Assembly (NCBI GenBank): GCA_963706445.1 | Contig: OY970160.1 | Coordinates: 1,600,001-1,664,000 of the forward strand | DNA: 64,000 nucleotides | Reading direction: 5' to 3' | Source: an uncultured Nitrososphaerales archaeon | Lineage (GTDB): Archaea > Thermoproteota > Nitrososphaeria > Nitrososphaerales > Gagatemarchaeaceae | Shown: piece after piece, positions 16,861 through 37,979 of the stretch | Layout of the letters: every line of letters begins with the position of its first letter | Position numbering within the stretch: the stretch's first letter is position 1 | Program-made: the position numbers and the translations under genes | The notes under the pieces: generated by a model | Seen by the model: the letters and a program-made list of their open reading frames with translations, nothing else | What the model was told of the DNA's origin: nothing | Databases searched by the model: none

Positions 16861-17391
16861 ATGACGAGGGTCGTCGCCTTCCTGAGGGCGATCAACGTCG
16901 GAGGCCACGTTGTGAAGAAGGAGCAGTTGCTGCAGGTGTTCGAGTCGCTTGGGTTCAAGGGCGCTGTGGCCTACAAGCAGGCGGGGAATGTGATTTTCGA
17001 AGCTGATGTAAAAGACCTTGAGAGGGCCAGGCTCGGCATAGAAAAGAAGCTGCGCAGTGCCCTCGGCTACGAAGTGGAGGTGTTCATTCGGGGAGTCCTA
17101 GACCTCCAGGGGCTGGTTGAGAAAGAGCCGCGTGCGCAGAAGGCAGATGTGATGAGTTGCTTGGTCACGTTTCTGCCCGACTCCATTCCCAATCGGCTCC
17201 CCCGGCTCCCATTGGTCATTCCCAAGTCGACGGTGGAGGTCGTTTCGTCGACGGGCAAGGAGGTAATCAGTCTGACACATGTCATGGGGGAGGGGGTTCT
17301 TCCCAACCAGTTCCTGGAGTCGGAGTTGAAGGCGAAGACTACCACCCGCAACATCAACGTGATACGAGAAATTGTGGAGAAGTTCGGCTAG
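16861..17391 (+). CDS. DUF1697 family protein
   Basis: AFLRAINVGG N-terminus, QAGNVIF and TTRN motifs. Confidence 0.85.
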   Translation: MTRVVAFLRAINVGGHVVKKEQLLQVFESLGFKGAVAYKQAGNVIFEADVKDLERARLGIEKKLRSALGYEVEVFIRGVLDLQGLVEKEPRAQKADVMSCLVTFLPDSIPNRLPRLPLVIPKSTVEVVSSTGKEVISLTHVMGEGVLPNQFLESELKAKTTTRNINVIREIVEKFG

Positions 17392-17455: not shown

Positions 17456-17522
17456 GGCCCTGGTTGTGTAGCTTGGTAAGCATAGGAGGCTGTGGACCTC
17501 CTGACGTGGGTTCAAATCCCAC
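17456..17522 (+). pseudogene. Truncated resident tRNA-His(GTG) lacking the 3' acceptor strand (left att site)
   Basis: G-1 plus GCCCTGG, D arm, anticodon arm GGAGG-CTGTGGA-CCTCC (GTG at 17492-17494) and T arm GTGGG-TTCAAAT-CCCAC. It then reads TTATTTA where CCAGGGC-C is required. TATA-like CATAAAG about 30 nt upstream. Confidence 0.88.
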
Positions 17523-17619
17523 TTATTTACTACCTAGGTAGGCTCAAACAAAGCGTTTAAGAGACGATGGGCTCTAGAAAGTGTCGAGGACCCCAATGCT
17601 CGAGACCGTAATGATAAGA

Positions 17620-17716
17620 GGCCGCGGGAGGGATTTGAACCCTCGACCCCGAGGTAGCTACGCTGAGTCTACAGCTCCACAGCCTCGTATGCTAACCAAG
17701 CTGCACCACCGCGGCC
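17620..17716 (-). tRNA. tRNA-His(GTG), intact, with a 21-nt canonical intron (17656-17676)
   Basis: G-1/GCCGCGG...CCGCGGC-C acceptor stem, CGAGG/CCTCG anticodon stem, and GAGGG-TTCAAAT-CCCTC T arm. The intron at 37/38 forms a BHB: CTGT pairs with GTAG, and GCTG-TAGACT-CAGC is the outer helix. Confidence 0.95.
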
Positions 17717-17771
17717 AAGCGGATCAAAGGTCTCCGGGGGTTCCTGATTTAAGGAGAAGGGGAACCAATCC

Positions 17772-19040
17772 ATGATATCCCCTGAGCCGAAGCAGGCGTC
17801 GGTGGAGCGACTGATGGCAGTGGCCAAGCTCGCGGAATCGACGAAGAAGAACTACCTGATGAGGGTTAACCAGTATGTCAAGGAGGTGAAGATGGGTCCT
17901 GATGAATTCGTCAGGTCGGTGAAGGCCAGGCCCAAGAAGTTCGAAGAGTCGTTCATCGAGTTCCTCCAGGCGACGGCAAAACGCTCAAGCCCGTCGACGA
18001 CCATGGCTTACAGGGACTCCCTGAAAAGGTTCCTGGAGATCAACAGGGTAAGGGGAATCGACTGGGACTATGTGGGCGATTTCGTGCCCAGCGCCAAGAA
18101 AGCTGGCCAGGACAGGGCGCCGACCCTGGAGGAGATCCAGAGGATCGTCGACGTCTCAGATCTTAGGATGCGGTGTCTCGTGCTGTTCCTTTGCTCGACT
18201 GGGGCGAGGATAGGTTCGATTCCATATCTGAAATGGAGTGACGTCGAGGGGGTGGAGGTCGAAGAAAAGAAGTTCGCCAAGGTGACCATTTACAGGAACG
18301 AGCCGGAGGCGTATATCACATTCATGACGCCGGAGTCCTACGGATTGCTATTGGAGTACAGGAAGTTGAGAGAGGGCATAGGCGAGCATGTCACGGCGGC
18401 CTCTCATGTCTTCGTGACCCAGGGCAACGCCAGGGATTTCGACCCCGCCGGGGTAAGGCAGGTATCTATCAATACGCTGAAGAATCAACTGGGGAAGTTG
18501 CTCGAAAACCTCGGGATGAGAACGGCGATAAGCCAGCGAGGACGATACAAGACCTACGAATTCAAGCAGGCACATGGTTTCAGGAAGTTCTTCAAAACGA
18601 GGATGGAGGTCGCTGGGGTCAAGCCGCTAGCCGTAGAAACCATGATGGGGCACAACACCGGGCTCGCGAGAAGCTACTACAAGCCGACGGCGGGGGAGCT
18701 AGCGAACGAATACTCGAAGGCCATTGATGAGCTGACAATAGTCAGGCCCCAGCAATCGGTGGCTAAGGACGCGATACTCGCTACAATAAGAAAGGAAATG
18801 CTGATCGGGAGGTACAGTGAAGTGGAGATTGGGAAGATTGGGGACCTGTCAAAGCTCACCAACGAGCAGATGGTTGAGCTACTGAATAGGAGGGCTCAGC
18901 CGGCAGCCCCTAAGGTTGCGGGGACCGGAAGTCAGAGGGTGGTCCCAGCCAGCGATGTCAAGGGAATGATCGAACAGGGGTGGGAGTATCTGACGAAGCT
19001 CCCCGATGGGTATGTTGTCATGAAGCTGCCGAAGCCCTAG
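17772..19040 (+). CDS. Tyrosine recombinase/integrase
   Basis: Catalytic residues R (STGARIG), HxxR (AHGFRKFF), H (MMGH) and Y (RSYYKP); N-terminal core-binding domain; C-terminal extension. Confidence 0.95.
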   Translation: MISPEPKQASVERLMAVAKLAESTKKNYLMRVNQYVKEVKMGPDEFVRSVKARPKKFEESFIEFLQATAKRSSPSTTMAYRDSLKRFLEINRVRGIDWDYVGDFVPSAKKAGQDRAPTLEEIQRIVDVSDLRMRCLVLFLCSTGARIGSIPYLKWSDVEGVEVEEKKFAKVTIYRNEPEAYITFMTPESYGLLLEYRKLREGIGEHVTAASHVFVTQGNARDFDPAGVRQVSINTLKNQLGKLLENLGMRTAISQRGRYKTYEFKQAHGFRKFFKTRMEVAGVKPLAVETMMGHNTGLARSYYKPTAGELANEYSKAIDELTIVRPQQSVAKDAILATIRKEMLIGRYSEVEIGKIGDLSKLTNEQMVELLNRRAQPAAPKVAGTGSQRVVPASDVKGMIEQGWEYLTKLPDGYVVMKLPKP

Positions 19041-19092
19041 AACCGAAGCATAGAATAGGGCAAATCCGCCCCATCGCATTTCTTGAAGTGGG

Positions 19093-19248
19093 TTATTCCT
19101 CTCCGCGCTCTTTCTTGTGTCGTCTTAGGTGCTCTCTGACCATCGAGTCAAGTTGCTTCTGGTAGAGCGAGACGAATGACTTGCCACACTCGGGACACGA
19201 GGCGGTCAGGACTCGGGGCATCTCGGGTTGCTTTACAAGCATATCCAT
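19093..19248 (-). CDS. Small C2H2 zinc-finger protein (51 aa)
   Basis: CPECGKSF...REHLRRH; ATG at 19248 with a TATATA box about 20-25 nt upstream. Confidence 0.75.
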   Translation of the reverse strand: MDMLVKQPEMPRVLTASCPECGKSFVSLYQKQLDSMVREHLRRHKKERGEE

Positions 19249-19326
19249 ACCCCTACCGGTATGGATATATAGAACTTGCGCCGAAAACCTCAGATGCTTA
19301 TATAGCCCACTGGTATGGGTATGGGT
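19243..19326. promoter_or_regulatory. Divergent promoter with back-to-back TATA boxes and repeated GGTATGG(A/G)T operator-like motifs
   Basis: ATCCATACC (19243-19251) / GGTATGGAT (19258-19266) inverted pair; GGTATGGGT at 19312 and 19318; GATATATAG and CTTATATAG between them. Confidence 0.55.
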
Positions 19327-19554
19327 ACCCCTTACGACGGTGGACCGGGTCTTCACCCATCCATAAGTGACGGCGATCACGCCGGTGAGATTTCACTGGT
19401 GGGATTGAAGGAGAAAGCTCGCCGCATCCTTCCTCCCAATAGCCCGGCGAGGAACTTGATTCTGGCTGAGAAGGACACCCTCCCGGTAGGGGAAGCGCTA
19501 GCGAAGTTCGAAGTCTTCGACAGGCTCCTCATGAACGAGCTGAAGGTGGCATGA
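19315..19554 (+). CDS. Small hypothetical protein of the type often found beside archaeal integrases
   Basis: Helical core LKEKARRILPPNSPARNLILAEKDTL; stop abuts the next gene; start uncertain. Confidence 0.55.
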   Translation: MGMGTPYDGGPGLHPSISDGDHAGEISLVGLKEKARRILPPNSPARNLILAEKDTLPVGEALAKFEVFDRLLMNELKVA

Positions 19555-19555
19555 A

Positions 19556-20194
19556 GTGTACTTTGTCTATAGATGCCGAAGCTGCGGCGCCGAGCTCCTG
19601 GACGGGTCGAGGGACAATCTGAGGCAGAGGGTCCGGGAACACCCCTGCCCTAGGAGCGGCCAGGTGGTCATCTGGGAGGCGATAGGCCGCCCGGCGGTTC
19701 ACGAAAGGACCAAGCAAGATCGCAACAGGAGATTACGAGAACAGAAGCTTCGGGCACTGGAACTCGTATGCGGGAAGGTGGAACCGCTTGGGAGAGGTGC
19801 GTCAATGGTGAACTCGCAAGTTGTGGTCAAGTGTGCCCATCCGGGGTGCGAAGTCCAGGACCCTAGTAAGCTCGAGTTGTACCTGAAGGATGGGAGCAAG
19901 AGGCCGCTGACTAAGTCGGGAGGGAAGAAGTGGGGGACGAACCTGTACCCGGGAATTGTGGCGGGTCATATCGATCCGGATCCTTTCATTGTCGTGTGCA
20001 AGATGCATAGGACGATGTACACTTCAAGCAGGAGATGGCAACCAGTCGCCCCAAAGCTTGGACACTCGACTGGAAGGCCGGAAGAGGAGGCACGGACGGT
20101 CACGGTTGGGGAGCTATTGAGGACGCTATTAGCAAAACGGAGGAAGTCTGGAGAATCGGAAGAGGCGGGAGTGGAGTGGAGCCAGAGGACATGA
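19556..20194 (+). CDS. Zinc-ribbon protein with a degenerate HNH-like domain
   Basis: N-terminal CRSCG...HPCP; C-terminal KCAHPGC...LELYLKDG...NLY...FIVVCKMH resembles an HNH scaffold but lacks the catalytic DH. Confidence 0.55.
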   Translation: MYFVYRCRSCGAELLDGSRDNLRQRVREHPCPRSGQVVIWEAIGRPAVHERTKQDRNRRLREQKLRALELVCGKVEPLGRGASMVNSQVVVKCAHPGCEVQDPSKLELYLKDGSKRPLTKSGGKKWGTNLYPGIVAGHIDPDPFIVVCKMHRTMYTSSRRWQPVAPKLGHSTGRPEEEARTVTVGELLRTLLAKRRKSGESEEAGVEWSQRT

Positions 20195-20604
20195 GCGGAT
20201 GCACTTGCATGTGGGTTAGGGCTGGATTGGGTTCTGGGTGGCCAGGCGGCGATAAGAAATCAACGAATTTCCAAGGAAAACCCGACATTGGTCAAGGTGG
20301 CGGACATTTAGAGGGGCTCTCCTACTACCTCTAGTACCCAAGACATTGGTCAGGAGGGTTGCTGTCTAGGGGTTCGAGGAATGTCCGAATATGGACCGTG
20401 TGGAAACCTAACGTTAAGGCGCTACTTTGAGACAGAACAGGGCTTGGTTTGGTGACTGGTGCCTGCCTAGAGGGCTCCCCTCCCACTTGGGCCCACCTCA
20501 TGGGAGTCTAGGAGCCGAGCGACAAGCGATAACTTAACGCCTGACCATAACAAATATTCGATTGGTCACTGTAGGTTTCCGAATGGGGAGATGGAGTGTT
20601 GGGG

Positions 20605-20739
20605 TCAGGGTGTACTCCTGAATCGAGCTTTGAAGTGCTGGCACTCTTCATGCTTGACCATCACATCGTACCACTCTCCGCATTGTTCACAGTAGTACCA
20701 GCGGTTGAGACTGAAATCCCATGGAGGCCTCCGTGGCAT
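20605..20739 (-). CDS. 44-aa Cys/His metal-binding microprotein
   Basis: MPRRPPWDFSLNRWYYCEQCGEWYDVMVKHEEC; ATG at 20739 with a CTTAAG box about 25 nt upstream. Confidence 0.5.
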   Translation of the reverse strand: MPRRPPWDFSLNRWYYCEQCGEWYDVMVKHEECQHFKARFRSTP

Positions 20740-20820
20740 AGCCAAAACAAGGAACGCGGGGCCCTTAAGCCTTGACTCTCCAAAGAAAGGGGGCGGTGGC
20801 GAATCGAATCGCCCAAGTGG

Positions 20821-21217
20821 GAGAATCTGGAGCGCCTGAGCTCCAAGGATAAGAACCACTTCCTGACCCGACAACTATGAGGCCATGCTCTCGATGAAGA
20901 CCATCGACCTGCTCTTCCAGAACTTCAAGTCCGACCTGAAGCTGGAGGAGATCATCCTGAACTCGCGGAGGCTCGCCAGCTTCCTTCTGGGCAGGAGCCA
21001 GAGCCTGGAGTTCGTCCTGAGGCCGGTCGTAGTCAAAGAGGCGTTCGTGAAGGACGCCGTGAAAGAGATGATCCTGACGAAATCGCATCGGGAACTGGGG
21101 ATGAACAAGAGCACGCTTTGGTATCAGAGGAAACACATGAGAGAGACCGGGTCGGTAAGGCTTTACAACAAGACGAAGCAGTATTTCGTCTCTAACCCGA
21201 GTTGCAAGAATTTTTAG
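20821..21217 (+). pseudogene. C-terminal remnant of a solo Cas1 / casposase (HTH tail)
   Basis: ENLERLSSKDKNHFLT / (frameshift) DNYEAML...NSRRLASFLLG...LEF...KEMILTKSHRELGMNKSTLWYQRKH resembles the C-terminus of casposon-type Cas1 as I recall it. The catalytic N-terminal part is absent. Confidence 0.55.
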
Positions 21218-21247
21218 GATAACGGGATTCGGCAGTGCCCCGCGGAA

Positions 21248-22153
21248 TTGGTTGCCGACCCTCAAGCCACCTTACTGAGCTATTTGACGCAAGAAGTTTC
21301 GGCTCATGGGACGATACTCGTTGGCTTGATTGCGGCCATGTTCGCTTACTTCACTCTCAAGGGACACGAGTCGTTCTCGAAGACAGTTCTTGGAACCCCG
21401 AAAAGAGGGTGGAATGAAGTACTTTCAGCATCGGCATTGCTGCTACTTGTGGCGGGAGTCGTCTTCGTCATCGGAAGGATGATGAGCTATGGTCAGTTAA
21501 CCTACTTCACGATTTACAATAATCCAATTGCGAATCAAAGTCTGGGGACATACTACACAGCAGTTCATAATGCATCGATCTCGTTCGGTGCTCCACGGAT
21601 AGTCTTAGAATACTTTCCTAGCGACTTCTGGGCAGGAGGGCTATTCTCGATATGGGTAGGCGGCTTCTTGACATTGATGCTCTGGAGACCACGAAGAATA
21701 TCCAGGTGGCGCCTCATTTTCTCTGGAGTAATGTTAGTCTTCGCTCTGTTTTCGTCGGTACTAGTTAGCCATATTTTAGCGAACGGGGCAGACAGGGATT
21801 ACGTGTTCATTTTACTTTACGTTGCATACTTTCTAGCCTCAGTAGGAAATTGGCCGATTCCATGGCGTGACCTGTTCAAGGGAATCCCCGTGGGCAAGAT
21901 GGCCATCATTTACCTTGACAATGACCAAACAATCGGAGGCAAAGTCACACAGAGAAGCGGAGGGGAGATGACAATCGAAGACGCTTCTATGATTGCGGTT
22001 CACCATGTCCTAGGCGGTGCAGAGCCTTCCTTTGAGCCCACAAGCGGAATGGGGGATGTCAACATCCCTGTCTCATCCATCCTCAGGTGGAGCCCGTTTC
22101 CCACCAGTCTTGCCGAAAAATGGAAAAACCTCCCTAAGAACCAATCAAAGTAG
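21248..22153 (+). CDS. Hypothetical multi-TM membrane protein with a C-terminal beta-rich, possibly Sm-like, domain
   Basis: About 5 TM segments; tail IIYLDNDQTIGGKVTQ...MTIEDA...DVNIPVSSI; locally lower GC. Confidence 0.6.
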   Translation: MVADPQATLLSYLTQEVSAHGTILVGLIAAMFAYFTLKGHESFSKTVLGTPKRGWNEVLSASALLLLVAGVVFVIGRMMSYGQLTYFTIYNNPIANQSLGTYYTAVHNASISFGAPRIVLEYFPSDFWAGGLFSIWVGGFLTLMLWRPRRISRWRLIFSGVMLVFALFSSVLVSHILANGADRDYVFILLYVAYFLASVGNWPIPWRDLFKGIPVGKMAIIYLDNDQTIGGKVTQRSGGEMTIEDASMIAVHHVLGGAEPSFEPTSGMGDVNIPVSSILRWSPFPTSLAEKWKNLPKNQSK

Positions 22154-22442
22154 CTCTGCTTACGCATCGAAGCCAAGTCCTGCTTCTCTCCATTCACGCA
22201 GGCGCGTTACGGCGACACTGACGTCTACATTTCTCAGTCACTCGAAGCATCTGAAGTGCCTTAATCTATGCCGTGAAGTGCTGAGTATAGTGACTTAACA
22301 AACCCTTCCAAGGACTCGATTGGCTGGGGATCATACATTCGACCCCAACAGGACGAGGTATTCCCGGCGGGGGTGCGCCATTGCTAAGACTTTTCATATT
22401 GGGCAGGGCCCGAACTGGAGAAGAATTGCCGCCCTAGTGTAA

Positions 22443-22901
22443 TCAGGCCGACGTGACTTTGAGCAGACCGCTCTGCATGGCCCAGTGTATCGAACAGAAG
22501 ATGCTACAATAGATTCGGAAATCCCCGCTCTTATCAGCGACGAAGGACACGTGCAGAACCTGGCCTGGCACAATTGTGATGATGTTGCTGTCGTAGTAGT
22601 ACGTTACCTGGAATCCATGCGCTTGGAAGTCGGTGTTGCAGACTGTGATGTTCACAGTCTGGTTTTGCTGGACGGTCATCACCGGCCACGAATTTGTAGG
22701 CACACCATGGGAGATGCTGTCGTTGTAACCGTCACTGCTCGCAACTATAAGGAACCCGTCGGCGGGCTTCACGCACTCCAATGGAAGAGAGGTGGAGGTA
22801 GTGGTCCTGCCCCGGCTTGCTAGGTAGAACGCGGTGGTAAGGATGGCGCCGACAAGGACTACAACCAAGACGACAAGGATAATCAGCTGGTTTGGCTTCA
22901 A
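22443..22901 (-). CDS. Membrane-anchored cupredoxin with a CuA-like site
   Basis: N-terminal TM anchor; HGF...GDFRIYCSIFCSIHWAM (COX2/NosZ-type ligand set). Confidence 0.82.
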   Translation of the reverse strand: MKPNQLIILVVLVVVLVGAILTTAFYLASRGRTTTSTSLPLECVKPADGFLIVASSDGYNDSISHGVPTNSWPVMTVQQNQTVNITVCNTDFQAHGFQVTYYYDSNIITIVPGQVLHVSFVADKSGDFRIYCSIFCSIHWAMQSGLLKVTSA

Positions 22902-22918
22902 CCACTGTCAGAGCCAGT

Positions 22919-23809
22919 TTACGAATGGAGGAGAGCCGCCAGATAAAGGCAAGTGAATCCCAGAATCATCATCAAAGCGATCTTTGTTGATTCCAATTTT
23001 GAACCTGCGCCCTGGAAGAGCGGTCGAGCAAGCCTCAAGGCGGCGTAGGTCGAGGTCCCAAGGCCAAAAGCGAACACATAGGTAAAGTCGATATTGGGAA
23101 ACGCCTGAATCAGATAGTACGAGCTCGCTCCCCCGATTATCCCCGGCAAAGTGAAGGCCAGGGTCAGGACGACGAGGTCCTTCAGACGGCCACCCATGTC
23201 CTTCGTGTGGGCCTTTGCGTAAATCCAATATGCTGCGCCAACCATCATGGGCTCCAGTCCCTTATGCAGCACGAAAGCTGTCCCCGCTGATAGGCCGCCG
23301 AATGCGTCTATCAGGTTTGTACTCGAAGATGTTGCTGCAGTAGCGCCAACCGCGGCTCCCTCGCCGAAGCCATGGATTCCTACCGCAACGGCTACGAGCA
23401 GTGGTATCGCAAAGCCGAAGCTGACCCCAACGGACCCCTCGGCGAACATCTTGGTGTCAAGGGAGAATAGGAGAACCACGCCGATCGCGAAGACCACCCA
23501 CAGGGCGATATGCCAGCCGCCCCCAGTGAATCCCTCACTGACCCCGAGCAGCGAAGCATCCCCGATGGTGTCCGAGAAGAACCAAAGGTATAGACCGATG
23601 GCGAATGCCGCGAGGTACTTCCCACTGAGGTATCTTGCCGCTGCAGAGATTATTAAAAGCCCAATGAAGGTCGGAATCAGAAAGGTTGCGAGAACAGCGC
23701 CGAAGGTTTCAGCGAAACCTATCAAATTGCCGAACTCCCAACCCTTACCGGAAGAGTATGAACCGCAACCGAGGAGGGCTTCCCCTTCGCTGGGAACGGC
23801 ACCTCTCAC
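22919..23809 (-). CDS. ZIP-like divalent metal transporter
   Basis: IHGFGEGAAVG and LHKGLEP match the ZIP TM4/TM5 motifs; about 8 TM segments; start uncertain. Confidence 0.7.
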   Translation of the reverse strand: MRGAVPSEGEALLGCGSYSSGKGWEFGNLIGFAETFGAVLATFLIPTFIGLLIISAAARYLSGKYLAAFAIGLYLWFFSDTIGDASLLGVSEGFTGGGWHIALWVVFAIGVVLLFSLDTKMFAEGSVGVSFGFAIPLLVAVAVGIHGFGEGAAVGATAATSSSTNLIDAFGGLSAGTAFVLHKGLEPMMVGAAYWIYAKAHTKDMGGRLKDLVVLTLAFTLPGIIGGASSYYLIQAFPNIDFTYVFAFGLGTSTYAALRLARPLFQGAGSKLESTKIALMMILGFTCLYLAALLHS

Positions 23810-23897
23810 GAGTAGGGATGTTTAGTTATTCAGCATTGTGGCTCAAACGGCGAAACCTAAGAAACCTTAAGTCGATTCGTAGGGTGAAATAATCGCC

Positions 23898-24236
23898 TTG
23901 TCATTACCAACCCTAATTACTTCAAACCAGGACGACATCATGCATTTTGTCCTGCTCGTGCTTTCCGTCGTCCTTATGGCCGTATCCGCAAACGGGTTTA
24001 GGAGGAGACCAAACAGCCGGTACTTTTTCCTCATGCTGGCCTTCATTTTCTTCTGTCTGGATCAAGCAATCACGTTCTATCAAGAAATCTATCTGAACGG
24101 CCTGCTGATTTCAATTCCAATTCTCAGCTTGCATCTCGTCCACCTCCTAGAACTATTGATGAGCGTCAGCTTCCTGACAGCTCTGCTCAGGCCTTTCTCC
24201 CTTGGTCGGAGGGACGTGCAAGAAAGTGGATTCTGA
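23898..24236 (+). CDS. Small 3-TM membrane protein
   Basis: Hydrophobic ORF overlapping the downstream regulator gene. Confidence 0.65.
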   Translation: MSLPTLITSNQDDIMHFVLLVLSVVLMAVSANGFRRRPNSRYFFLMLAFIFFCLDQAITFYQEIYLNGLLISIPILSLHLVHLLELLMSVSFLTALLRPFSLGRRDVQESGF

Positions 24237-24759
24237 CAACATCAACCGTCAGCAAACCAAGCGACTGATATCGTTGTTCCCTGGCGTCCACCTCCGAATG
24301 CTTTCGAGATACCTTGGAGTATCTCTGAGCACGGCCCGATATCATCTGGCAGGCCTCCAGAGAGACGGCGAGGTCTACTGCAGGAAGGAAGGGGGGCATC
24401 TCAGAGCCTATCCCCTCTGGGCAACCGACGAACGTAGCAGAATGATATATGCCGTTCTCCAGCAAAAGGCGGTAAGGAGGATTCTTCGCATAATGCTCAG
24501 AGGAGAGCATGGGGAAGAACCAATGAAGACAAACAGTTGGATTTCGGGTGAGGCCCGCCTTTCCCAATCGACAGTGAGCGAGTATCTAGGCGCGCTCCAG
24601 GATCTACAGGTGGTCAGAAGGATGACCAACAAGGAAGGTCGCGCAGCATTTGAAATCGCAGATGAAGACAAGAGCCTCCTATCGACCGTTCTAGCGTCTT
24701 ATGAGGGTAACTTCGCTTCTAGGGCCACAGACAATTACGTTGACCTCTGGGAGTTCTAG
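24202..24759 (+). CDS. Winged helix-turn-helix transcriptional regulator (double HTH, ArsR-like)
   Basis: PGVHLRMLSRYLGVSLSTARYHL and LSQSTVSEYL; C-terminal DNYVDLW. Confidence 0.8.
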   Translation: MVGGTCKKVDSDNINRQQTKRLISLFPGVHLRMLSRYLGVSLSTARYHLAGLQRDGEVYCRKEGGHLRAYPLWATDERSRMIYAVLQQKAVRRILRIMLRGEHGEEPMKTNSWISGEARLSQSTVSEYLGALQDLQVVRRMTNKEGRAAFEIADEDKSLLSTVLASYEGNFASRATDNYVDLWEF

Positions 24760-24782
24760 GTCGGGCCGGCCTGCCTTGCTCT

Positions 24783-24825
24783 GTTAACTGCTGTAATTTT
24801 TCTGAAAATTTTTGCAGCAGTTAAC
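24783..24825. repeat. AT-rich inverted repeat / hairpin between convergent genes
   Basis: GTTAACTGCTG (24783-24793) / CAGCAGTTAAC (24815-24825) perfect arms, with further internal pairing. Confidence 0.7.
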
Positions 24826-24856
24826 CTGCCTACTCCTGGAGAGAGAGGGCCTAATG

Positions 24857-24884
24857 TGCGGTCGCCGGGATCTGAACCCCGGTT
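24857..24884 (-). repeat. tRNA 3'-end fragment (tRNA-Gly-like), probable att scar
   Basis: Minus strand AACCGGGG-TTCAGAT-CCCGG-CGACCGC-A is a T arm plus 3' acceptor strand plus discriminator, with no 5' half. Confidence 0.6.
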
Positions 24885-25104
24885 CCCTATGCGAATTATT
24901 GGTGACTGCGCGTTGATTTCGATATATCTTGCGGCGAGTGCCAGGCGGAACCACTTCCGTGGCACTTATAGCCGACCCGCGGCACCAAGCCGACTCCGAA
25001 GATCCAAACTAACTGTCAAATCCACCCGCTTTTCAGACCAACACATCTATTCTTTTGTGAAATAAGTGGGCTTTATTACCGCCTTACATGAAGTTGCAAC
25101 GACC

Positions 25105-25755
25105 CTACCTCCGCCTCTCTGTCACTTCTTCATGCTCTATGACAACAACCGAGCCGAGCACGAACCTGTGGTCGATCGGACCAAGTATCGAAATGTTGAA
25201 GGAATCTCTGACCGAGACCCACTTCTTGTGGACCTGGGCCACATCAACGCCGTTGGCCTGAAACCTGTAGTCATGCTCGACGAAATTGCCATAGATTCTG
25301 ACGAACTGGTTCCCGTTCAGCTCGAGCCAGTACTCGCTTCCTATCAGCCTCGCGATCTTCTTCTTTATCGCCGCCAGCATGTTCCCTCCAGAATCATAGA
25401 TGTCGAACTCCCTTCGCAGCGAGACCAGCTTACCGTTTACGCTCAAGATCTGAGCCCCAGTGGAGTCCAGAACAGCGAACTTCGCGGGGAGCTGGAAGAA
25501 GTTACCATCGGCCTGACCCAAGGGCGTGCCAGAAGCGTCCTGGATGTCGTAGTGCTCTCGCACTGAGACGATCTTTTTGTTGAGAGTCAGCTCGTTCGCG
25601 GTAAGCAGGAGCGTCTGTCCGACGGTGGAGGGTGTGGGCGAAGACTGCGCCGGGGAAGCATCTGCGTCAGAGGTCGGTGATACGGGCTTGCCACAGGACG
25701 AGCAGAAACTGGCGTCAGCCAGCAGCGAGGCTCCGCAATAGCGACAGAACACCAT
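25105..25755 (-). CDS. Zinc-ribbon + LURP-one/scramblase (Tubby C-like) protein
   Basis: FCRYCG...FCSSCG, a linker, then repeated KKIVSVREHYDI / KKWVSVRDSF beta repeats. Confidence 0.85.
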   Translation of the reverse strand: MVFCRYCGASLLADASFCSSCGKPVSPTSDADASPAQSSPTPSTVGQTLLLTANELTLNKKIVSVREHYDIQDASGTPLGQADGNFFQLPAKFAVLDSTGAQILSVNGKLVSLRREFDIYDSGGNMLAAIKKKIARLIGSEYWLELNGNQFVRIYGNFVEHDYRFQANGVDVAQVHKKWVSVRDSFNISILGPIDHRFVLGSVVVIEHEEVTERRR

Positions 25756-25931
25756 CTTCGATTGCTAGTCGGAGGCGGCTCGATATAAGCGTCGGATCCG
25801 GGCAACCCCAGATCCAGCATCGGCATTATTGATTTGCGTCTTCGACCCGTTTCAGAACCACTCCCGTGGTCTTCTTATCCGACTCGAGACATACTTAGCG
25901 TGTTACCTCATAGCAAGATGACTCTTCGGGA

Positions 25932-26390
25932 CTACACTCCGATATCTTCGTTCCAAAGGGTGGGCCTGTCCTCGACAAACTTCTTCATCATGTCGACACA
26001 GTTGGGATCACTCAAGTTGATGAGTTTCACACCTCTCTTCAATAGATAATCTTCATGGCCTTTGAAATTCACGTTTTCTCCTATCACCACCAAAGGAATC
26101 TTGTACAGAAGTACTGCACCACTACACATATCGCAGGGCGAGAGTGTTGAGTACAAAGTGCACTCGGAGTACGTGTCCGCCTTCAATCTTCCCGCGTTCT
26201 CCAGGCAATCCATTTCCGCATGCAAAACCACACTTCCCTTCTGAACTCTCCTGTTGTGTCCTCTCCCGATCACTTTCCCTTTGAAAACTAGTACGGAACC
26301 TATTGGTAACCCACCCTCCTTCAAACCCTGCTGAGCCTCTTTCCAAGCTTCGGTCATGAATTTCTGGTAGTCACCTGAATCTTTTGACAC
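25932..26390 (-). CDS. Cytosine/nucleoside deaminase (fungal FCY1-like)
   Basis: EGGLPIGSVL, GHNRRVQKGS, HAE...PCDMC zinc motif and WNEDIG end. Confidence 0.9.
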   Translation of the reverse strand: MSKDSGDYQKFMTEAWKEAQQGLKEGGLPIGSVLVFKGKVIGRGHNRRVQKGSVVLHAEMDCLENAGRLKADTYSECTLYSTLSPCDMCSGAVLLYKIPLVVIGENVNFKGHEDYLLKRGVKLINLSDPNCVDMMKKFVEDRPTLWNEDIGV

Positions 26391-26544
26391 TGGGTTTGGA
26401 CCAATGACTTGCTCGCAAGGAGTAGTTGAATCTTGTCAAATTCTGCCAGCCGACTGCGCCTTTTCTTCTCTAGCCGACCTTACCGTTGCTTAAGACATCT
26501 TGTTTCAACTCATGTCCCACCCAAAGCCGTTCTCTTTCACGAGT

Positions 26545-26570
26545 TCATCCAAGAAAGGAAACTTGGATGA
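26545..26570. promoter_or_regulatory. 9-bp perfect inverted repeat; candidate operator upstream of the peptide ABC operon
   Basis: TCATCCAAG-aaaggaaa-CTTGGATGA in the divergent intergenic region. Confidence 0.45.
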
Positions 26571-26654
26571 TCTTCTGCGCTCTCGCATGATTCAGGCGTT
26601 CACGGATGCTTTGCAGAACATTTATGCAAGTCTGAAGTGAAGAGACGCTCTCAA

Positions 26655-27689
26655 GTGAACCTACTAAGGTACATCCTCCAAAGGATTGTCTTCGCCATAG
26701 TGGTCTTAGTCAGTGTAGTGACGATTACTTTCATCATAGCACATAGCCTGGGGTCCAACCCGATAGTGGCCTGGCTGGGACGGGACGCCGCGTCCCACCC
26801 CCAATTGGCCCAGCTTTTCGCGCAGCAATACCACCTGAACGACCCGATATGGGTCCAGTACTACTACTACATTGGAGGTCTCCTGGAAGGCAACCTAGGG
26901 TATTCCCCTTCGAGGGGCTTCGCACCAGTCCTGACGGTTTTGAGCCAGACCCTCCCATACACTTTGCAGCTGGTGTTCTTTGCTTTTCTCATAACCATAG
27001 GGCTCGGAATCTTGTTCGGAGTGCTCGCTGCGAAGTACGCCCACACTCCAGTCGACTGGGGAATCCGGACCCTCTACCTCGCAGGCTCGGCCTCCTCCCC
27101 CTTCTTCGTCGCTCTGGTGCTCCTTGTCGTCTTTAGCTATCTATTGAGGCTCCTCCCTAGTGGCGGCGCCTTCGATCTAAGCTTGACGACGGCTACTCCC
27201 ATCACGGGGTTTCCGCTGATAGACAGCCTCATCGAGGGAAACTGGGCTTTCTTCGCAAGTAGCCTGGAGCATCTGATCCTTCCAAGCTTCGCTTTGGCCC
27301 TCGTCACCTTTGGCGTCGTGACGAGGGTGCTGAGGAGCTCCCTGCTCGATGTTATGCGAATGAACTACGTCAGAACCGCAAGGGCGAAGGGACTTTCGGA
27401 GAACAAGGTCTTCTTCAAGCACGCGGTTAGGAACGCACTGATTCCAGTGGTCACGCTCTCATCTGTAGTCCTCACGTGGCTGATAACCGGCACGATTTTC
27501 GTCGAGAATGTCTTCGGCTATCCAGGGATGGGCCAGTACTTGGTTTCTGCCCTCGAGTACCAGGACTATCCCGGCATACTCGCCGTCGCGATAGTCTTTG
27601 CCATATTCATCGTCGTGGGAAACCTTGTCGCAGACCTTCTGTACGTATACATCGACCCGCAAATCCGGCTTGGAGGTAGAGTTGAGTAG
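26655..27689 (+). CDS. dppB: Peptide/nickel ABC transporter permease (DppB/OppB)
   Basis: YILQRI start, GNLGYS, RTARAKGL EAA loop and DLLYVYIDP end. Confidence 0.92.
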   Translation: MNLLRYILQRIVFAIVVLVSVVTITFIIAHSLGSNPIVAWLGRDAASHPQLAQLFAQQYHLNDPIWVQYYYYIGGLLEGNLGYSPSRGFAPVLTVLSQTLPYTLQLVFFAFLITIGLGILFGVLAAKYAHTPVDWGIRTLYLAGSASSPFFVALVLLVVFSYLLRLLPSGGAFDLSLTTATPITGFPLIDSLIEGNWAFFASSLEHLILPSFALALVTFGVVTRVLRSSLLDVMRMNYVRTARAKGLSENKVFFKHAVRNALIPVVTLSSVVLTWLITGTIFVENVFGYPGMGQYLVSALEYQDYPGILAVAIVFAIFIVVGNLVADLLYVYIDPQIRLGGRVE

Positions 27690-28548
27690 CCATCTTACCT
27701 CGCGCCTAAAGACCTTCCTCTTGCTCATCAGGAAGAGCAGGGAGGCTATGGCTGGAGCCGTCATCATCGGTGGATTCTTCCTGCTCGCTATCCTCGTAGA
27801 AGTCTCGGAGGTTCTAGGTGTCCGAATCACCCCCTACGGCCCTCTTCAGCAGAACACCGGACCTGTGCTGGCGCCTCCGTCGCTGGCCCATCTTTTCGGC
27901 ACCGACCCGCTGGGCCGGGACGTGTTCAGCAGGATGGTGGTTTCGACACCTAACGATGTGGCAGTCGGCCTTGCCGTCGTAGGAGTAGGCCTCTTGGTCG
28001 GTCTCATGATAGGCTCGGTCGCCGCCCTCAGAGGTGGGCTCCTCGATGAGTTCCTGATGCGCGTAACGGACGTCTTCTTCGCCCTCCCCGCGCTTGTCAT
28101 CGCGATGGTGGTAGCCGTCGCGCTTGGGCCGGGGATCACGAACATGATGATTGCACTCGTGATCATTTGGTGGCCTCCCTATGCGAGGCTCGCCAGAGGG
28201 GAAGCACTGAGGGTTGTCAACCAGAACTACATCGAGGCATCCCGTACCTCGGGTTATGGGACTGGGAGGATAATCACGAGGCACATCATTCCCAACATAT
28301 TCACGACCATGCTGGTCTACGCGACGCTTGACATTGGGACGGTCATCCTTGTTTACGCAGGTTTGAGCTACCTTGGCCTGTCGGTCAAACCCCCGACCCC
28401 CGACTGGGGGGAGATGGTAAGTTCCTACCAAGACTATCTCATATCGGCGCCCTGGCTCCCCATCTTTCCTGGGCTAGTGATTGCTATTGGGGTCGCAGGT
28501 TTCAGCTTGCTCGGCGACGGGCTCAGGGACGCCCTCGAGGCCAGGTAA
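27682..28548 (+). CDS. dppC: Peptide/nickel ABC transporter permease (DppC/OppC)
   Basis: HLFGTDPLGRDVFSR, YIEASR, LSYLGL...PPTPDWG and GDGLRDAL; TTG start overlapping the dppB stop. Confidence 0.92.
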   Translation: MSSHLTSRLKTFLLLIRKSREAMAGAVIIGGFFLLAILVEVSEVLGVRITPYGPLQQNTGPVLAPPSLAHLFGTDPLGRDVFSRMVVSTPNDVAVGLAVVGVGLLVGLMIGSVAALRGGLLDEFLMRVTDVFFALPALVIAMVVAVALGPGITNMMIALVIIWWPPYARLARGEALRVVNQNYIEASRTSGYGTGRIITRHIIPNIFTTMLVYATLDIGTVILVYAGLSYLGLSVKPPTPDWGEMVSSYQDYLISAPWLPIFPGLVIAIGVAGFSLLGDGLRDALEAR

Positions 28549-28549
28549 G

Positions 28550-29620
28550 ATGCCGACCCTGCTCGACATAAGCGACTTGACTCTACGATACATGGTTGGC
28601 AACCAACAATTCACCGCATTGGACTCGGTCAACCTCACCATGGCGGAGAATGAGTTCCTCGCGGTCGTCGGAGAGTCAGGGTGCGGCAAGAGCTCCTTGG
28701 GGCTCTCTATCATCGGCTTGACGCCTAAGAAATCGAGCCGAATCGTGAAAGGTTCCATCAGATACAAGGACGAAGATCTGGCAAGGCTACATCAGGATGA
28801 GTTGAGAGAATACAGAGGCACCGAGATAGCCATGATCTTCCAGGAGCCACTCACCAGCTTGAATCCTGTATACAAGATAGGTGACCAGATGGCGGAGGCA
28901 ATCGAAGTGAGAACAAAGCGGAAATCTGGAGTAAGGGCGAACAACGAGCTCGCGCAAAAAGTGTACGACGCCGCCTCAGGAGATCAGGGGAGCCTTTCGC
29001 GCGCATTGCTGATTCGCAGAGGCACTCGTCCCGAGGTGAAGAAGGAAATGGTGGATTGGCTCGACCTCGTGAGGATCGGCGACCCTGAACATGTTTTGGA
29101 GCTTTTCCCGTTCGAGCTCTCCGGTGGCATGAGGCAGCGGGTGATGATCGCCATGGCCCTTTCCCAGAAGCCTGCCCTGCTCATCGCAGATGAACCGACC
29201 ACGGCCCTAGATGTTACCACCCAAGCCCAAGTCCTCAAGCTAATGCGCGACCTGATGCACGAGGTCAATACGAGCATACTTCTGATCACGCACGACCTCG
29301 CCGTCGCTAGCCAAGTTGCCGACCGTGTAGTGGTCATGTACGCAGGTGAGATTGCCGAAGATGCGGAGGTCAACGCGTTGTTCAAGAAGCCTTTGCACCC
29401 ATATACACAGGGGCTTCTAAACTGCATACCGGCCGGGACGAAAGACAACTCCTTCTTGGCCCCCATCCCAGGCTCCGTCCCCGATTCCAATAACACCCTC
29501 CAAGGATGCAAATTCGCCCCGAGATGCCAATTCGCCTTCGACAGATGCCAATCAAACAGACCGAAGCTCATCAATCAGGGGGACGGCCATCAAGTCTCGT
29601 GCTTCCTCCATGACAAGTGA
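28550..29620 (+). CDS. dppD: Peptide ABC transporter ATPase (DppD/OppD)
   Basis: GESGCGKS, MIFQEP, LSGGMRQR, ADEPTTALDV and a C-terminal Cys cluster. Confidence 0.93.
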   Translation: MPTLLDISDLTLRYMVGNQQFTALDSVNLTMAENEFLAVVGESGCGKSSLGLSIIGLTPKKSSRIVKGSIRYKDEDLARLHQDELREYRGTEIAMIFQEPLTSLNPVYKIGDQMAEAIEVRTKRKSGVRANNELAQKVYDAASGDQGSLSRALLIRRGTRPEVKKEMVDWLDLVRIGDPEHVLELFPFELSGGMRQRVMIAMALSQKPALLIADEPTTALDVTTQAQVLKLMRDLMHEVNTSILLITHDLAVASQVADRVVVMYAGEIAEDAEVNALFKKPLHPYTQGLLNCIPAGTKDNSFLAPIPGSVPDSNNTLQGCKFAPRCQFAFDRCQSNRPKLINQGDGHQVSCFLHDK

Positions 29621-30617
29621 AGAACCGCTCCTAAGGGTCGTCAATCTGAAGAAGTATTTCCCGGTCAGATCGGGTGCGTTACTAAGGGGGGAACGCCGAT
29701 TTGTCAAGGCCGTCGACGGCGTCTCGCTTGAGCTGGGAACAGGAAAGACATTGGGCGTGGTGGGCGAATCGGGCTGTGGAAAGACCACCCTTGCCAGGGT
29801 GGTGTCCTTGCTCACCCCCGTGACCAGCGGCGAGATATATTTCGAGAGCAAAAGAATGGACAGAGGCCGGATGAACCCGAAGGAAGTCTATCGCAATATG
29901 CAAATTGTCTTTCAGGATCCTGATTCGAGTCTCGATCCACAGATGAGAGTGGCCGATTCGGTCGCCGAACCGATCCGAGGCCTCCTCAAAGGCCCTGAAA
30001 ACATGGTGGAGAAAGCGGTCAAAGATAACCTCGCTGCAGTTGGTCTATCCCACGAGCTGGGAAGTAGGCTCCCACGTCAGCTGAGCGGCGGCCAGAAACA
30101 AAGGGTAGCGATCGCCAGGGCGATATCTGTCCGGCCTAAGCTCGTGATCTTAGACGAACCGACCAGCGCCCTGGATGCCTCTATCCAGGCCCAACTCCTC
30201 AGGCTCCTCGTAGAACTTCAGAAGGAATTCAACCTTTCCTATCTGATCATAACTCACAATATCGCGGTGGCGAAGTATCTTTCAGACGCCGTCGCGGTAA
30301 TGTATGCGGGGAGGGTCGTCGAATATGGCCCCACATTAGGAGTCTTGGAGAACCCGAGGCACCCGTACACCGACCTGCTGATCAAGTCTGCCCCATTTCC
30401 TGACCCATCGCAAAGGAACCTCTTGCAAGCGGAAGTCAAGGGCGAGGTCCCAAGCTTGATTCATCCTCCGCCAGGTTGCCGATTCAACCCGAGATGCCCC
30501 CTCGTGGGGCCAATTTGCTTGACGGAGAACCCTCCTCTAAGAGAGATAGCCAGGTCCCAGTGGGTGGCGTGCCACTTCGCTGAAAAGACGGGACAAAAAG
30601 GGGTGCCTCCGGCCTGA
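29610..30617 (+). CDS. dppF: Peptide ABC transporter ATPase (DppF/OppF)
   Basis: KAVDGVS, GESGCGKT, LSGGQKQR and PPPGCRF...VACH. Confidence 0.93.
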   Translation: MTSEEPLLRVVNLKKYFPVRSGALLRGERRFVKAVDGVSLELGTGKTLGVVGESGCGKTTLARVVSLLTPVTSGEIYFESKRMDRGRMNPKEVYRNMQIVFQDPDSSLDPQMRVADSVAEPIRGLLKGPENMVEKAVKDNLAAVGLSHELGSRLPRQLSGGQKQRVAIARAISVRPKLVILDEPTSALDASIQAQLLRLLVELQKEFNLSYLIITHNIAVAKYLSDAVAVMYAGRVVEYGPTLGVLENPRHPYTDLLIKSAPFPDPSQRNLLQAEVKGEVPSLIHPPPGCRFNPRCPLVGPICLTENPPLREIARSQWVACHFAEKTGQKGVPPA

Positions 30618-30630
30618 CCGGGCAGGCCGC

Positions 30631-31404
30631 TTACTTGGCGAGCCAGCCGGCATCCACCGGAATGTCGATGGCGTTCACAAATGATGCAGCGTCGCTTGCC
30701 AAGAAGTAGGCGACCTCGGCGACCTCCCTAGGATCCGCAAAGCGCTTGAAGGCCTGGTCTGCCTTCTTGCGCGCTTCCAGCTCACCTGGTGTCGTGCCTC
30801 GGACTTTGGATTCAAGTTCGATGTTTCTGTGGAGCAAGGCCGTATCGATCAATCCCGGACTGATGCAGTTCACCCTGATGTTGCTGGGAGCGAGCTCCCA
30901 TGCGAGCGACCTAGTGAGGGATACAACGGCCCCCTTGGTCGCCGAGTAGATTCCTCGGAAAGGCTGACCAGAGTAGGCCGAGGCGGAGCCGACATTGACA
31001 ATCGCGCCCCGGTTCTTCGCCTTCATCTTAGGAGCGACGTGCTTGCACATGAGGAACGTTCCACCCAAATTGATGTCTACTATGCGCCTGTAGTCTTCCC
31101 AGGTAGTCTCCTCTAGAGGCTTGATCAGCGCAACCCCGGCGACGTTGATGAGAGAATCAATCCGTTGATATTTCTGGCTCAGAGCTTCAACGCTCCTTTT
31201 CACCTCGGCTTCGTTAGTCACGTCGCATTTCACGTAAGCGGAGGATCCACCACTGCCGTTCACCTCTTCTGATACCTGGCGTCCCCGTTCGTCTGTATCC
31301 AGAATCGCCACTTGGTATTTGCGCTCTGAAAACAGTCTTGCGGTAGCCTCCCCGATGCCGTTCGCTCCCCCAGTGATGATCGCTGTCGGAAGACTACTCT
31401 CCAA
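30631..31404 (-). CDS. Short-chain dehydrogenase/reductase
   Basis: TGGANGIG, NVAG, YSATK and IRVNCISPG. Confidence 0.93.
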   Translation of the reverse strand: MESSLPTAIITGGANGIGEATARLFSERKYQVAILDTDERGRQVSEEVNGSGGSSAYVKCDVTNEAEVKRSVEALSQKYQRIDSLINVAGVALIKPLEETTWEDYRRIVDINLGGTFLMCKHVAPKMKAKNRGAIVNVGSASAYSGQPFRGIYSATKGAVVSLTRSLAWELAPSNIRVNCISPGLIDTALLHRNIELESKVRGTTPGELEARKKADQAFKRFADPREVAEVAYFLASDAASFVNAIDIPVDAGWLAK

Positions 31405-31457
31405 ATCGTCACTGGGTTCACGAGTTATGATAATTTAATGTTCGTTCGCTTGCTGGA

Positions 31458-32042
31458 CTATAGTTTCGGTTTCCTGATGGTATGGTCCTCGGGGGGAGTA
31501 CGGCCGAGAGGCCTTGGCCCGTTGCCTCCTGCTATCGCAATGACCATCTCGTCTTTGCGGGGAGCGTCTGGGATGCACACCCGAACTGTGTCGACGTACT
31601 TCGGATCCCACATTTTCTTGTGTCTCATAGGGATGTACAATGTCGTCCCCATGGGGCCCTGAACTTCCGTTGCCTCGATGTACTCCTTGGCCACAGTATA
31701 ATCTCCGACGTACTCCCGGTATCCAGGAGCCAACCCGCCGTGCAGGATGGACGTGATATTTTCTAACTCGCCATCTTCCCCGACGATGCCCGCCTTCCCG
31801 AAGGTCTCAACTTTCTCCTCGCCACCTAACTCGTCCACCACCATCTTCCCAAGCTTGCTTCCAAGATCCCTTGCAAAAGGGAACAGGAAGGAAAGATCTT
31901 CGATGTACTCTCCCGCGTAGGGATTGGTCAACACGGCGGCTACGGTGAATCTGACAATCGGCTTGTCGAACTTCTTTCCCCTGTCCTCGTAGATTTCGTC
32001 TTTGATGGTAACCAATTTCCTCATTTCTGGAAGTGTGGGCAA
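31458..32042 (-). CDS. Amino acid synthesis family protein (DUF1185/AA_synth)
   Basis: AAVLTNPYAG, FGKAGIVGEDGELE and DAPRKDE...GPRP motifs. Confidence 0.85.
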   Translation of the reverse strand: MPTLPEMRKLVTIKDEIYEDRGKKFDKPIVRFTVAAVLTNPYAGEYIEDLSFLFPFARDLGSKLGKMVVDELGGEEKVETFGKAGIVGEDGELENITSILHGGLAPGYREYVGDYTVAKEYIEATEVQGPMGTTLYIPMRHKKMWDPKYVDTVRVCIPDAPRKDEMVIAIAGGNGPRPLGRTPPEDHTIRKPKL

Positions 32043-32098
32043 AGACCAAGCACCTAGCAGAAATTCTGGGGAGGTTCAGGCTTCAGCAATTTGTTGGC

Positions 32099-34078: not shown

Positions 34079-34243
34079 CCTGCGTAACGGGTTAGGGGCG
34101 TTGGGATATTAAGCGTTTGGCGCGCTCTGTTCTTGGTGCACTAATCATGCAAGTACCGCGATTCTCAATCAAAAGCTGCTCGACCGTTTTGACCGCCCCG
34201 CCAAAGATTAAAATCACTCGTCAAGCGCAATCACGTTAGAACT

Positions 34244-36997: not shown

Positions 36998-37000
36998 GTT

Positions 37001-37022: not shown

Positions 37023-37048
37023 TTATCCTTTTATTCGCTGAGAACCTC

Positions 37049-37963: not shown

Positions 37964-37979
37964 TGCGCATTCGAATCTC

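Follow-up and report, generated by a model that had tools for sequence, protein, structure and literature searches.

How does a cell keep its histidine tRNA when a mobile element cuts through the only gene encoding it and does not restore it? This question is raised by a locus in the genome of an uncultured Nitrososphaerales archaeon of the Gagatemarchaeaceae (assembly GCA_963706445.1), which consists of a single contig of 1,817,757 bp (OY970160.1). The stretch of 64,000 nucleotides analyzed here (the window) corresponds to genome positions 1,600,001–1,664,000, and coordinates refer to it unless the genome is named. An integrative island of 36,872 bp, designated Element A, was found at 17523..54394 inside the resident tRNA-His(GTG) gene, and it carries a complete, different tRNA-His(GTG) gene and a tyrosine integrase gene at its left end. 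The evidence taken together makes it likely that Element A split the single resident tRNA-His without rebuilding it, and that the loss was compensated by the cargo tRNA-His(GTG).

The split resident gene and the complete copy inside the island

The left attachment site (attL) of Element A was formed by a 5' fragment of the resident tRNA-His(GTG) gene, located on the plus strand at 17456..17522. The fragment started with G-1 at 17456, followed by tRNA positions 1–65 at 17457–17522, and contained the acceptor strand GCCCTGG, the D arm, the GTG anticodon arm, the variable region TGAC and the T arm GTGGG/TTCAAAT/CCCAC. Directly after T-stem position 65 the sequence TTATTTAC was found where CCAGGGCC belongs, and the acceptor 3' strand was missing. 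The Rfam tRNA model aligned with the fragment at model positions 10–63 only (36.2 bits). A preliminary description of the locus, made from the sequence alone, had placed the end of the resident gene after T-stem position 65, which agrees with the sequence and with the Rfam alignment. It had also reported nine missing nucleotides and was right in substance, as the displaced acceptor 3' strand (CCAGGGCC plus C) was present once in the genome, on the plus strand at 54395..54403.

The chromosomal left flank of the fragment contained a DUF1697 gene (16861..17391, plus strand; Pfam PF08002, 6.8e-25), which was also located upstream of an intact tRNA-His gene in the relatives G018 and G005 and on one JGI contig. 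Intact tRNA-His genes occupied the syntenic locus in G018, G005, G002, G009, G012 and G097 and had the promoter box CATAAAGACGG...CTGCCGCA in common with the plus-strand fragment. Because this upstream gene and this promoter are common to the intact tRNA-His genes of the relatives, the plus-strand fragment was identified as the resident gene. In five relatives the 3' side of tRNA-His was joined to homologues of genome positions 1,710,713–1,717,830, which means that about 93 kb is extra in the genome studied here. The left flank was detected in metagenomes from peat, soil and wetland. The tRNA-His genes at the syntenic locus of relatives were found to possess no intron, one intron (14–32 nt, at 37/38) or two (in G006, also in the D loop), and two types of acceptor stem (GCCCTGG and GCCGCGG) occurred at this locus across the genus with a patchy distribution.

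The borders of Element A were defined by contigs from three peat-metagenome runs of two studies, which represented the empty site. These contigs matched positions 16900/17074–17522 with 0–2 differences in 449–623 nt and continued directly after 17522 with the 30 nt CCAGGGCCCTTATTCATGGACCTAGTTCAA, found in the genome solely at 54395–54424, so that an intact tRNA-His was formed. Since they run from 17522 into CCAGGGCCCTTATTCATGGACCTAGTTCAA, they reveal a natural variant in which the intact resident tRNA-His is joined to 54395, and since 17522 and 54395 are directly adjacent in them, 17523–54394 is a discrete insert located between tRNA positions 65 and 66. The preliminary description had expected an intact gene in island-free relatives, and it was such a form that the peat metagenomes provided. 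The GC content of Element A was 55.3% vs 58.1% for the genome. A search for the right border through a perfect repeat of the resident fragment within the window had given only 11–14-nt matches. A 10-bp repeat at genome position 1,691,660, considered as the right end of a 74-kb island, was ruled out, as the empty-site contigs place the end at 54394.

The filled form was recovered a second time. The Logan short-read contig ERR12036785_2166065 corresponded to 17493–19309 at 100% identity, and in it a 30-nt stretch specific to the resident tRNA ran directly into TTATTTAC, followed by the cargo tRNA and the integrase gene (int). As this contig came from another accession, the broken junction is independent of one assembler, and the assembly error that the preliminary description had allowed for was not encountered. 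The island was also found apart from the chromosome. The 35,801-bp ENA contig ERZ25039587:contig_186227 was a circular permutation of the island with 95–98% identity, in which 38616–54277 was followed by 18321–38336 and the contig ends met near 38.5 kb. Position 54277 was joined to 18321 over 4 nt of microhomology, and the contig lacked 54278–54394 and 17523–18320, so that codons 1–183 of int were missing, as were the cargo tRNA and the att region. The island hence also occurs as a separate unit, either a circle or a tandem, and the derivative that was seen is devoid of the att region. The many small open reading frames (ORFs) in this contig suggest a noisy long-read assembly.

The existence of a circular form could speak for a free plasmid misassembled into the chromosome, and the intron-bearing tRNA-His genes common at this locus in the genus could suit a reversed assignment of roles, in which the intron-bearing gene would be ancestral and the plus-strand fragment an att duplicate. 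Such an artefact or misassignment is highly improbable and already largely refuted. The independent short-read assembly fused a chromosome-specific part of the resident tRNA to the island, and the plus-strand fragment had a conserved chromosomal promoter and upstream gene, whereas the flanks of the minus-strand gene had no match among the 96 other genomes of the family. Moreover, in the empty-site form the plus-strand gene was intact and the whole insert was absent. The preliminary description had considered that the intron-bearing copy might be the ancestral one; in the relatives it is the plus-strand copy that represents the ancestral gene of the locus.

Two tRNA-His loci were detected in the whole 1.82-Mb genome, and ARAGORN (with introns), the Rfam tRNA model and nhmmer agreed on this number. 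With a genus profile based on 17 tRNA-His genes from relatives, nhmmer assigned 66 bits to the resident fragment (the match ending at profile position 68) and 63.9 bits to the cargo copy. No third tRNA-His was found in the single-contig genome by these three whole-genome searches, and the next nhmmer match was a tRNA-Glu (21 bits). A single tRNA-His match was also typical of most relatives examined. The suggestion made earlier that the island supplies the only functional tRNA-His gained support, as the intact gene lies inside the insert and other copies, sought throughout the genome, were not detected.

The cargo tRNA-His(GTG) gene was located on the minus strand at 17620..17716 and was the sole intact tRNA-His in the genome. 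It was complete, with the G-1:C73 pair, matched positions 1–71 of the Rfam model (51.3 bits) and was classified as His(gtg) by ARAGORN. The resident fragment and the cargo gene were oriented tail to tail with a gap of 97 bp (17523–17619), which corresponds to the distance of about 100 bp given previously for a different, intact tRNA-His on the minus strand. Its acceptor strand was GCCGCGG and its T stem GAGGG/CCCTC. The mature cargo tRNA and the rejoined resident tRNA were identical at 62 of 76 positions, with the differences located mostly at paired positions of the acceptor, anticodon and T stems. The identity elements of HisRS are G-1, C73 and GUG, and all of them were retained in the cargo tRNA.

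The cargo gene contained a 21-nt intron at 37/38 (17656..17676, minus strand), identified with ARAGORN and by reading the fold from the sequence by hand. The intron had the canonical hBHBh' form of a bulge-helix-bulge (BHB), composed of the anticodon stem, the bulge CUA, a 4-bp helix CUGU/GUAG with two G.U pairs, the bulge GGA and the helix GCUG/CAGC. As in archaeal tRNA introns, the splice sites lay in 3-nt bulges with the 4-bp helix between them, and splicing gives a 7-nt anticodon loop. The preliminary description had called this intron perfect, and its structure justifies the term. With a full cloverleaf, the G-1:C73 pair, a BHB intron and differences confined mostly to stems, the cargo tRNA looks functional, and as far as the sequence allows one to judge it would be both expressed and essential.

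The cargo tRNA gene and int were separated by a divergent 55-bp spacer (17717..17771) with one AT-rich box (GATTTAAGG / CCTTAAATC), a putative promoter. The same leader was present ahead of an integrase of 77% identity on a JGI contig, which stops there. The closest match of the cargo tRNA among relatives was 81% identical (G097). Its 3' flank (TCTTATCATTACGG) was similar to the arms that follow the tRNA 3' end at Element A and at a second, older island (island B), located directly downstream of it. The cargo tRNA may have been captured from a tRNA–element junction in another host.

The integrase family and its attachment sites

The int gene (17772..19040, plus strand) encodes a tyrosine integrase of 422 amino acids (PF00589, 3.3e-8; PHROG 1 integrase, 7e-19) with the motifs TGARIGS, AHGFRKF, MMGHN and RSYY. 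It starts 55 bp from the 5' end of the cargo tRNA, head to head with it, and had no paralogue in the genome. Homologues were present in 165 of the 301 genomes sampled from the order. For 11 relatives of the integrase (56–65% identity) the upstream region was visible, and in all of them an intact tRNA-His was located upstream on the same strand, at a distance of about 65–90 bp, or about 470 bp in the case of G172. The preliminary description had proposed that its altered 3' sequence makes the cargo tRNA immune to its own integrase; such immunity is conjectural, and in G175 the tRNA-His adjoining the integrase relative had the T stem of the cargo tRNA. The two other tyrosine recombinase genes of the genome (genome positions 542,971–543,947 and 1,522,372–1,523,327) had the ordinary arrangement: each was located just downstream of a tRNA with which it shared the strand, tRNA-Glu(CTC) in the first case and a weakly matching tRNA in the second.

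In the G172 element the borders were formed by a 27-nt repeat comprising the T arm and the acceptor strand. The far ends of the G172 and G283 elements consisted of GATTTGA(A/G)CCTAC, 4 nt, the T arm and the acceptor, and the tRNA-proximal arm of normal elements consisted of the acceptor, 7 nt and GTAGGTTCAAATC. The inverted motifs of the family (in G283 and G172) are accordingly spaced by 4+17+8+7 = 36 nt. In normal members the attP, the attachment site of the free element, faithfully reproduces the T arm together with the acceptor 3' strand, and because of this copy the tRNA gene is rebuilt at attL upon integration. Direct repeats including the tRNA 3' end, together with an intact tRNA at attL, were found in the relatives but not in Element A.

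The left arm of Element A (17523..17619, plus strand), recognized by sequence comparison, comprised TTATTTAC, a 7-nt spacer TACCTAG, the family motif GTAGGCTCAAAC (17538–17549) and a TATA-like sequence GCGTTTAAGAG, and was homologous to the spacer between tRNA and integrase at four related loci, including that of G018. The right end (54363..54394, plus strand) was 32 nt long, with ATAT between the half-site GATTTGAACCCAC, which is inverted, and GTGGACTCACATCCC, a diverged copy of the T arm. No repeat in the region was longer than this site, of which a second, exact copy was located at genome position 1,691,523, and the same architecture was seen at the far ends in G283 and G172. A search for this 32-nt site in 97 genomes of the family gave a match in G283 only, where it was of the ordinary rebuilding kind. 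The common core CAAATCCCAC, made up of the 3' part of the T loop and the 3' strand of the T stem, was located in its left copy at 17513..17522 (plus strand), recurred as CACATCCC at 54387–54394 and was also found beside the last remnant of the tRNA 3' end (genome position 1,691,660).

When the ends of Element A were joined (GATTTGAACCCAC ATAT GTGGACTCACATCCC with AC as in the second copy, then TTATTTAC TACCTAG GTAGGCTCAAAC), the 36-nt spacing was kept. In this reconstructed attP the T-arm copy was identical to the target at 14 of 17 positions, the 8-nt acceptor slot was occupied by TTATTTAC, and the sequence shared with the target was reduced to CA[A/C]ATCCC(AC), 8–10 nt. The main argument against a rebuilding of the gene by the attP of Element A lies here, in a diverged T-arm copy and a replaced acceptor slot within the kept spacing. 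Neither junction contained a functional tRNA, attL being devoid of the acceptor strand and attR, the right junction, of positions 1–48.

A second junction without rebuilding was identified at genome positions 1,691,545–1,691,679, where a 115-nt insert was flanked by a 10-nt repeat (CACATCCCAC / CAAATCCCAC). The acceptor copy of this insert was decayed (CAAGAGTC, 5/8). Since the insert is flanked by CACATCCCAC and CAAATCCCAC, the crossover probably takes place within ATCCCAC. The 115-nt insert lies just after the second 32-nt site and before the last tRNA-His 3' copy, and looks like the scar of a non-rebuilding recombination into an old att site.

The course of events that we propose is as follows. 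The integrase of Element A belongs to a family targeting the T arm of tRNA-His, and the tRNA copy in the attP of Element A would have decayed until only about 8–10 bp were common with the target. As a consequence of this decay, recombination, probably in ATCCCAC, would have cut the resident tRNA-His between positions 65 and 66 and moved the acceptor strand 36.9 kb away. The cell would have survived due to the complete foreign tRNA-His(GTG) located 97 bp inside the left end of the island, with its own putative AT-rich promoter box and a standard intron whose removal by the host splicing endonuclease is expected.

Alternative routes to the split gene

The same arrangement could have arisen in two steps. 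An ordinary rebuilding integration, with an attP of the form ...CACATCCC-CCAGGGCCC-TTATTTAC, would at first have given two working tRNA-His genes, and a later 9-nt deletion would have removed the acceptor strand of the redundant resident copy. Integration would then not have been disruptive, and the island tRNA would still be the sole functional copy today. Such a history explains the right junction (CACATCCC followed by CCAGGGCCC) without an anomaly of two nucleotides. Island B possesses an acceptor strand followed by a very similar arm, TTATTCAT, and because it has both, an ancestor of Element A with an acceptor strand and the arm is plausible. We nevertheless consider later decay unlikely. 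The deletion would have had to start exactly after T-stem position 65 and to end exactly at the start of the island arm, and the 36-nt spacing of the inverted motifs typical of the family would have had to arise by chance. No other decay was seen in the flanks when they were compared with the empty-site strain, the few differences being those given above, and the second genome junction demonstrates that recombination at ATCCCAC also occurs with arms whose acceptor copy is decayed. We infer that integration itself, and not later decay, broke the resident gene.

Several points weigh against a disruptive integration compensated by the cargo tRNA. After a conservative exchange, CACATCCCAC should stand in front of CCAGGGCCC at the right junction, whereas the genome has CACATCCC, with the two bases AC missing. 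Because this junction is two bases short, one more small event has to be assumed, and a 9-nt deletion that occurred later at attL would be a similarly economical explanation. The filled form is represented by one strain only, and the genome and the ERR12036785 contig possibly originate from one sample. No attP of an excised intact element was seen, the sole circular form being the derivative described above, which has neither the att region nor the cargo tRNA nor the start of int. Finally, the genome, although in one contig, has an estimated completeness of 95%, so an unassembled replicon with a tRNA-His is possible.

Further occurrences of the junction were sought in public data. The junction pattern had no match in genome and viral contig collections, and the int leader gave only chance matches in unrelated bacteria when searched in genome contigs. 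A metagenome scan with the integrase for a second integrant revealed one relative of 77% identity, on a contig that ends 28 nt before int. Among the listed public sequencing runs no RNA run contained the locus and none contained the island itself; the four runs examined had the left flank and the empty site only.

Another possibility is that the resident tRNA-His still works as a split tRNA, its 5' piece and the displaced acceptor strand being transcribed separately and trans-spliced. Split tRNA genes joined in trans are known from Nanoarchaeum and Caldivirga, and as in those cases the pieces of the resident tRNA-His are far apart in the genome. In co-folds the acceptor stems were able to pair in trans, and the sequence in front of the displaced strand included a 13-nt stretch complementary to the T arm of the 5' piece. 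Unlike in known split tRNA genes, no leader and trailer forming a BHB were found at the Element A locus: when the 5' piece was co-folded with each of the two candidate 3' pieces, no BHB appeared at 65/66, and on this ground a trans-spliced resident tRNA-His was rejected. The partner of the complementary stretch is the T arm of the exon itself and not a trailer, and the stretch is the ordinary inverted att motif of the family. In addition, the split is recent, arising from an insertion whose empty-site allele is still present in the population, and an intact gene of the same isotype is available. A functional split tRNA is therefore hardly to be expected.

Returning to compensation by the cargo tRNA, the preliminary description had spoken of addiction of the host to the island. 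This holds against deletion of the left end of the island: since the cargo gene is the only tRNA-His, loss of this end other than by clean excision should be lethal. It does not hold against clean excision, by which the two parts of the resident gene could in theory be reunited, although with 2 nt now missing at the right junction the gene so reunited might no longer work.

Gene content of the region, known systems and implications

Apart from int and the cargo tRNA, Element A encodes mainly metabolic functions, among them transport and the catabolism of purines and peptides, identified with Pfam. The region 26637..34078 contained genes of an Opp/Dpp-type ABC transporter (two permeases, two ATPases and SBP_bac_5) with a short-chain dehydrogenase. 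A TrmB regulator and ParB were encoded head to head at 36182..37963. On the minus strand at 43812..53319, genes of a xanthine-dehydrogenase-type molybdoenzyme, a FAD subunit, adenine deaminase, an M24 peptidase and XdhC were located. Further products of the element were dehydrogenases, peptidases and an amino-acid permease. About 30 island ORFs were compared with Pfam, and nine uncharacterized ORFs and the integrase with PHROGs, and in these scans no virus families were matched beyond the integrase and a dCMP deaminase. The concept of Element A as a provirus was abandoned, as the PHROG scan gave no support to it, and the element is possibly plasmid-like.

The last ~40 residues of XdhC (52297–52445) resembled integrase residues 340–378 (18789–18905), with 38% identity over 39 amino acids and a pairwise E value of 5e-6. 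The same C-terminal extension was present in XdhC relatives of 340–343 amino acids, most XdhC proteins being about 286 amino acids long. Contigs with XdhC relatives had another context and no att site.

Element A is placed in front of island B, which starts at 54404 and reaches beyond the window end (64000) to about genome position 1,691,679. Island B had a family-type left arm (TTATTCATGGACCTAGTTCAAATC) and no match to PF00589, was present in the empty-site form and was terminated, at genome position 1,691,660, by 19 nt that repeat the 3' end of the tRNA. Inside it, 1.7 kb from the junction at 54363, a relic of a third T-arm-copy site (CCCACACATGTGGACTCACATC) was found on the plus strand at 56050..56083, composed of a degenerate inverted half-site and a T-arm copy and recognized by 15 nt that it has in common with both 32-nt sites. 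About 19 kb more (genome ~1,691,680–1,710,700) separated the last tRNA remnant from the genes located downstream of tRNA-His in relatives, including a second, inverted Opp-type transporter operon paralogous to that of Element A.

The mechanism proposed for Element A is not unprecedented. Tyrosine integrases of actinobacteriophages (Fionnbharth/K4, Cluster L and others) act in a tRNA-dependent lysogeny with a core of about 10 bp, in which the host tRNA is left unrestored and lysogens were proved by experiment to require a phage tRNA of that isotype (Guerrero-Bustamante & Hatfull 2024, PMC10865867). The same has been proposed for the Lactobacillus johnsonii prophage Lj965 (PMC10865867). Element A resembles this system in its tyrosine integrase, in an attB (the chromosomal target) that overlaps a single-copy tRNA gene, in the mere ~10 bp shared by attP and attB and in the tRNA of the same isotype inside the insert; the disrupted host tRNA-His was likewise the sole gene of its isotype in the genome. 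It differs in its archaeal host, in its metabolic cargo and ParB in place of recognizable virus genes, and in a cargo tRNA whose intron has to be removed by the host splicing endonuclease and which is placed head to head with int, right beside the att arm. That the cargo tRNA is required was established by experiment in the phages and is deduced for Element A from the arrangement of the locus. As far as can be seen, Element A would work like the phage system without being a phage.

In archaea, an integration is described as restoring an uninterrupted tRNA gene (2021 review, PMC8371274). Element A agrees with ordinary archaeal elements, such as pNOB8-type elements and the integrated mobile genetic elements of thaumarchaea, in its integrase family and target, in the position of int beside the tRNA and in its short att site, which in the thaumarchaeal elements has 8–26 bp (Krupovic et al. 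2019, PMC6563490). The accumulation of elements in tandem at a single tRNA hotspot is a further common trait. In contrast to these elements, the tRNA was not restored and an extra, inverted and complete tRNA lies between the att arm and int; no case like Element A is reported in the accessible part of the thaumarchaeal survey (PMC6563490). A parallel in layout from another archaeon is the tRNA-Thr locus of Caldiarchaeum subterraneum, where an insert with a recombinase occurs together with the 5' fragment of a tRNA and a full tRNA that is interrupted in another way (Sugahara et al. 2012, PMC3293823). At both loci an archaeal population is polymorphic, and a recombinase insert has on one side a tRNA fragment and on the other a full copy of that isotype which is different and distinct in intron content. 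In Caldiarchaeum, however, the full gene forms a direct repeat with the fragment and represents the rebuilt junction itself, while in Element A the full gene is separate and inverted and the junction was not rebuilt.

A wider interpretation, which we put forward tentatively and hold to be slightly less probable than its opposite, is that elements of soil Nitrososphaerales switch from rebuilding the target tRNA to replacing it: a tRNA-His is acquired first, the attP copy then decays and integration becomes obligatorily disruptive. If so, each integration would exchange the essential tRNA-His of the host for a foreign, intron-bearing allele, which would constitute the first archaeal and the first non-viral case of tRNA-dependent integration and a direct, repeatable route to horizontal tRNA gene replacement and intron gain. 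It could also explain the patchwork of acceptor stems and introns at the tRNA-His locus across the genus.

The locus is a documented exception to the stated restoration of tRNA genes in archaea, with its empty, filled and circular states present in public data. A mechanism proven only in actinobacteriophages in 2024 would be extended by it to Archaea and to a metabolic island, which suggests that the mechanism evolves as a general outcome in elements that have gained a tRNA of the isotype they target. The natural attP/attB pair, with an overlap of about 7 nt, may be useful for studies of integrase site choice. For the host, an essential function would have become dependent on a mobile element, and the locus offers a concrete mechanism by which tRNA alleles and introns may be turned over in archaeal genomes.

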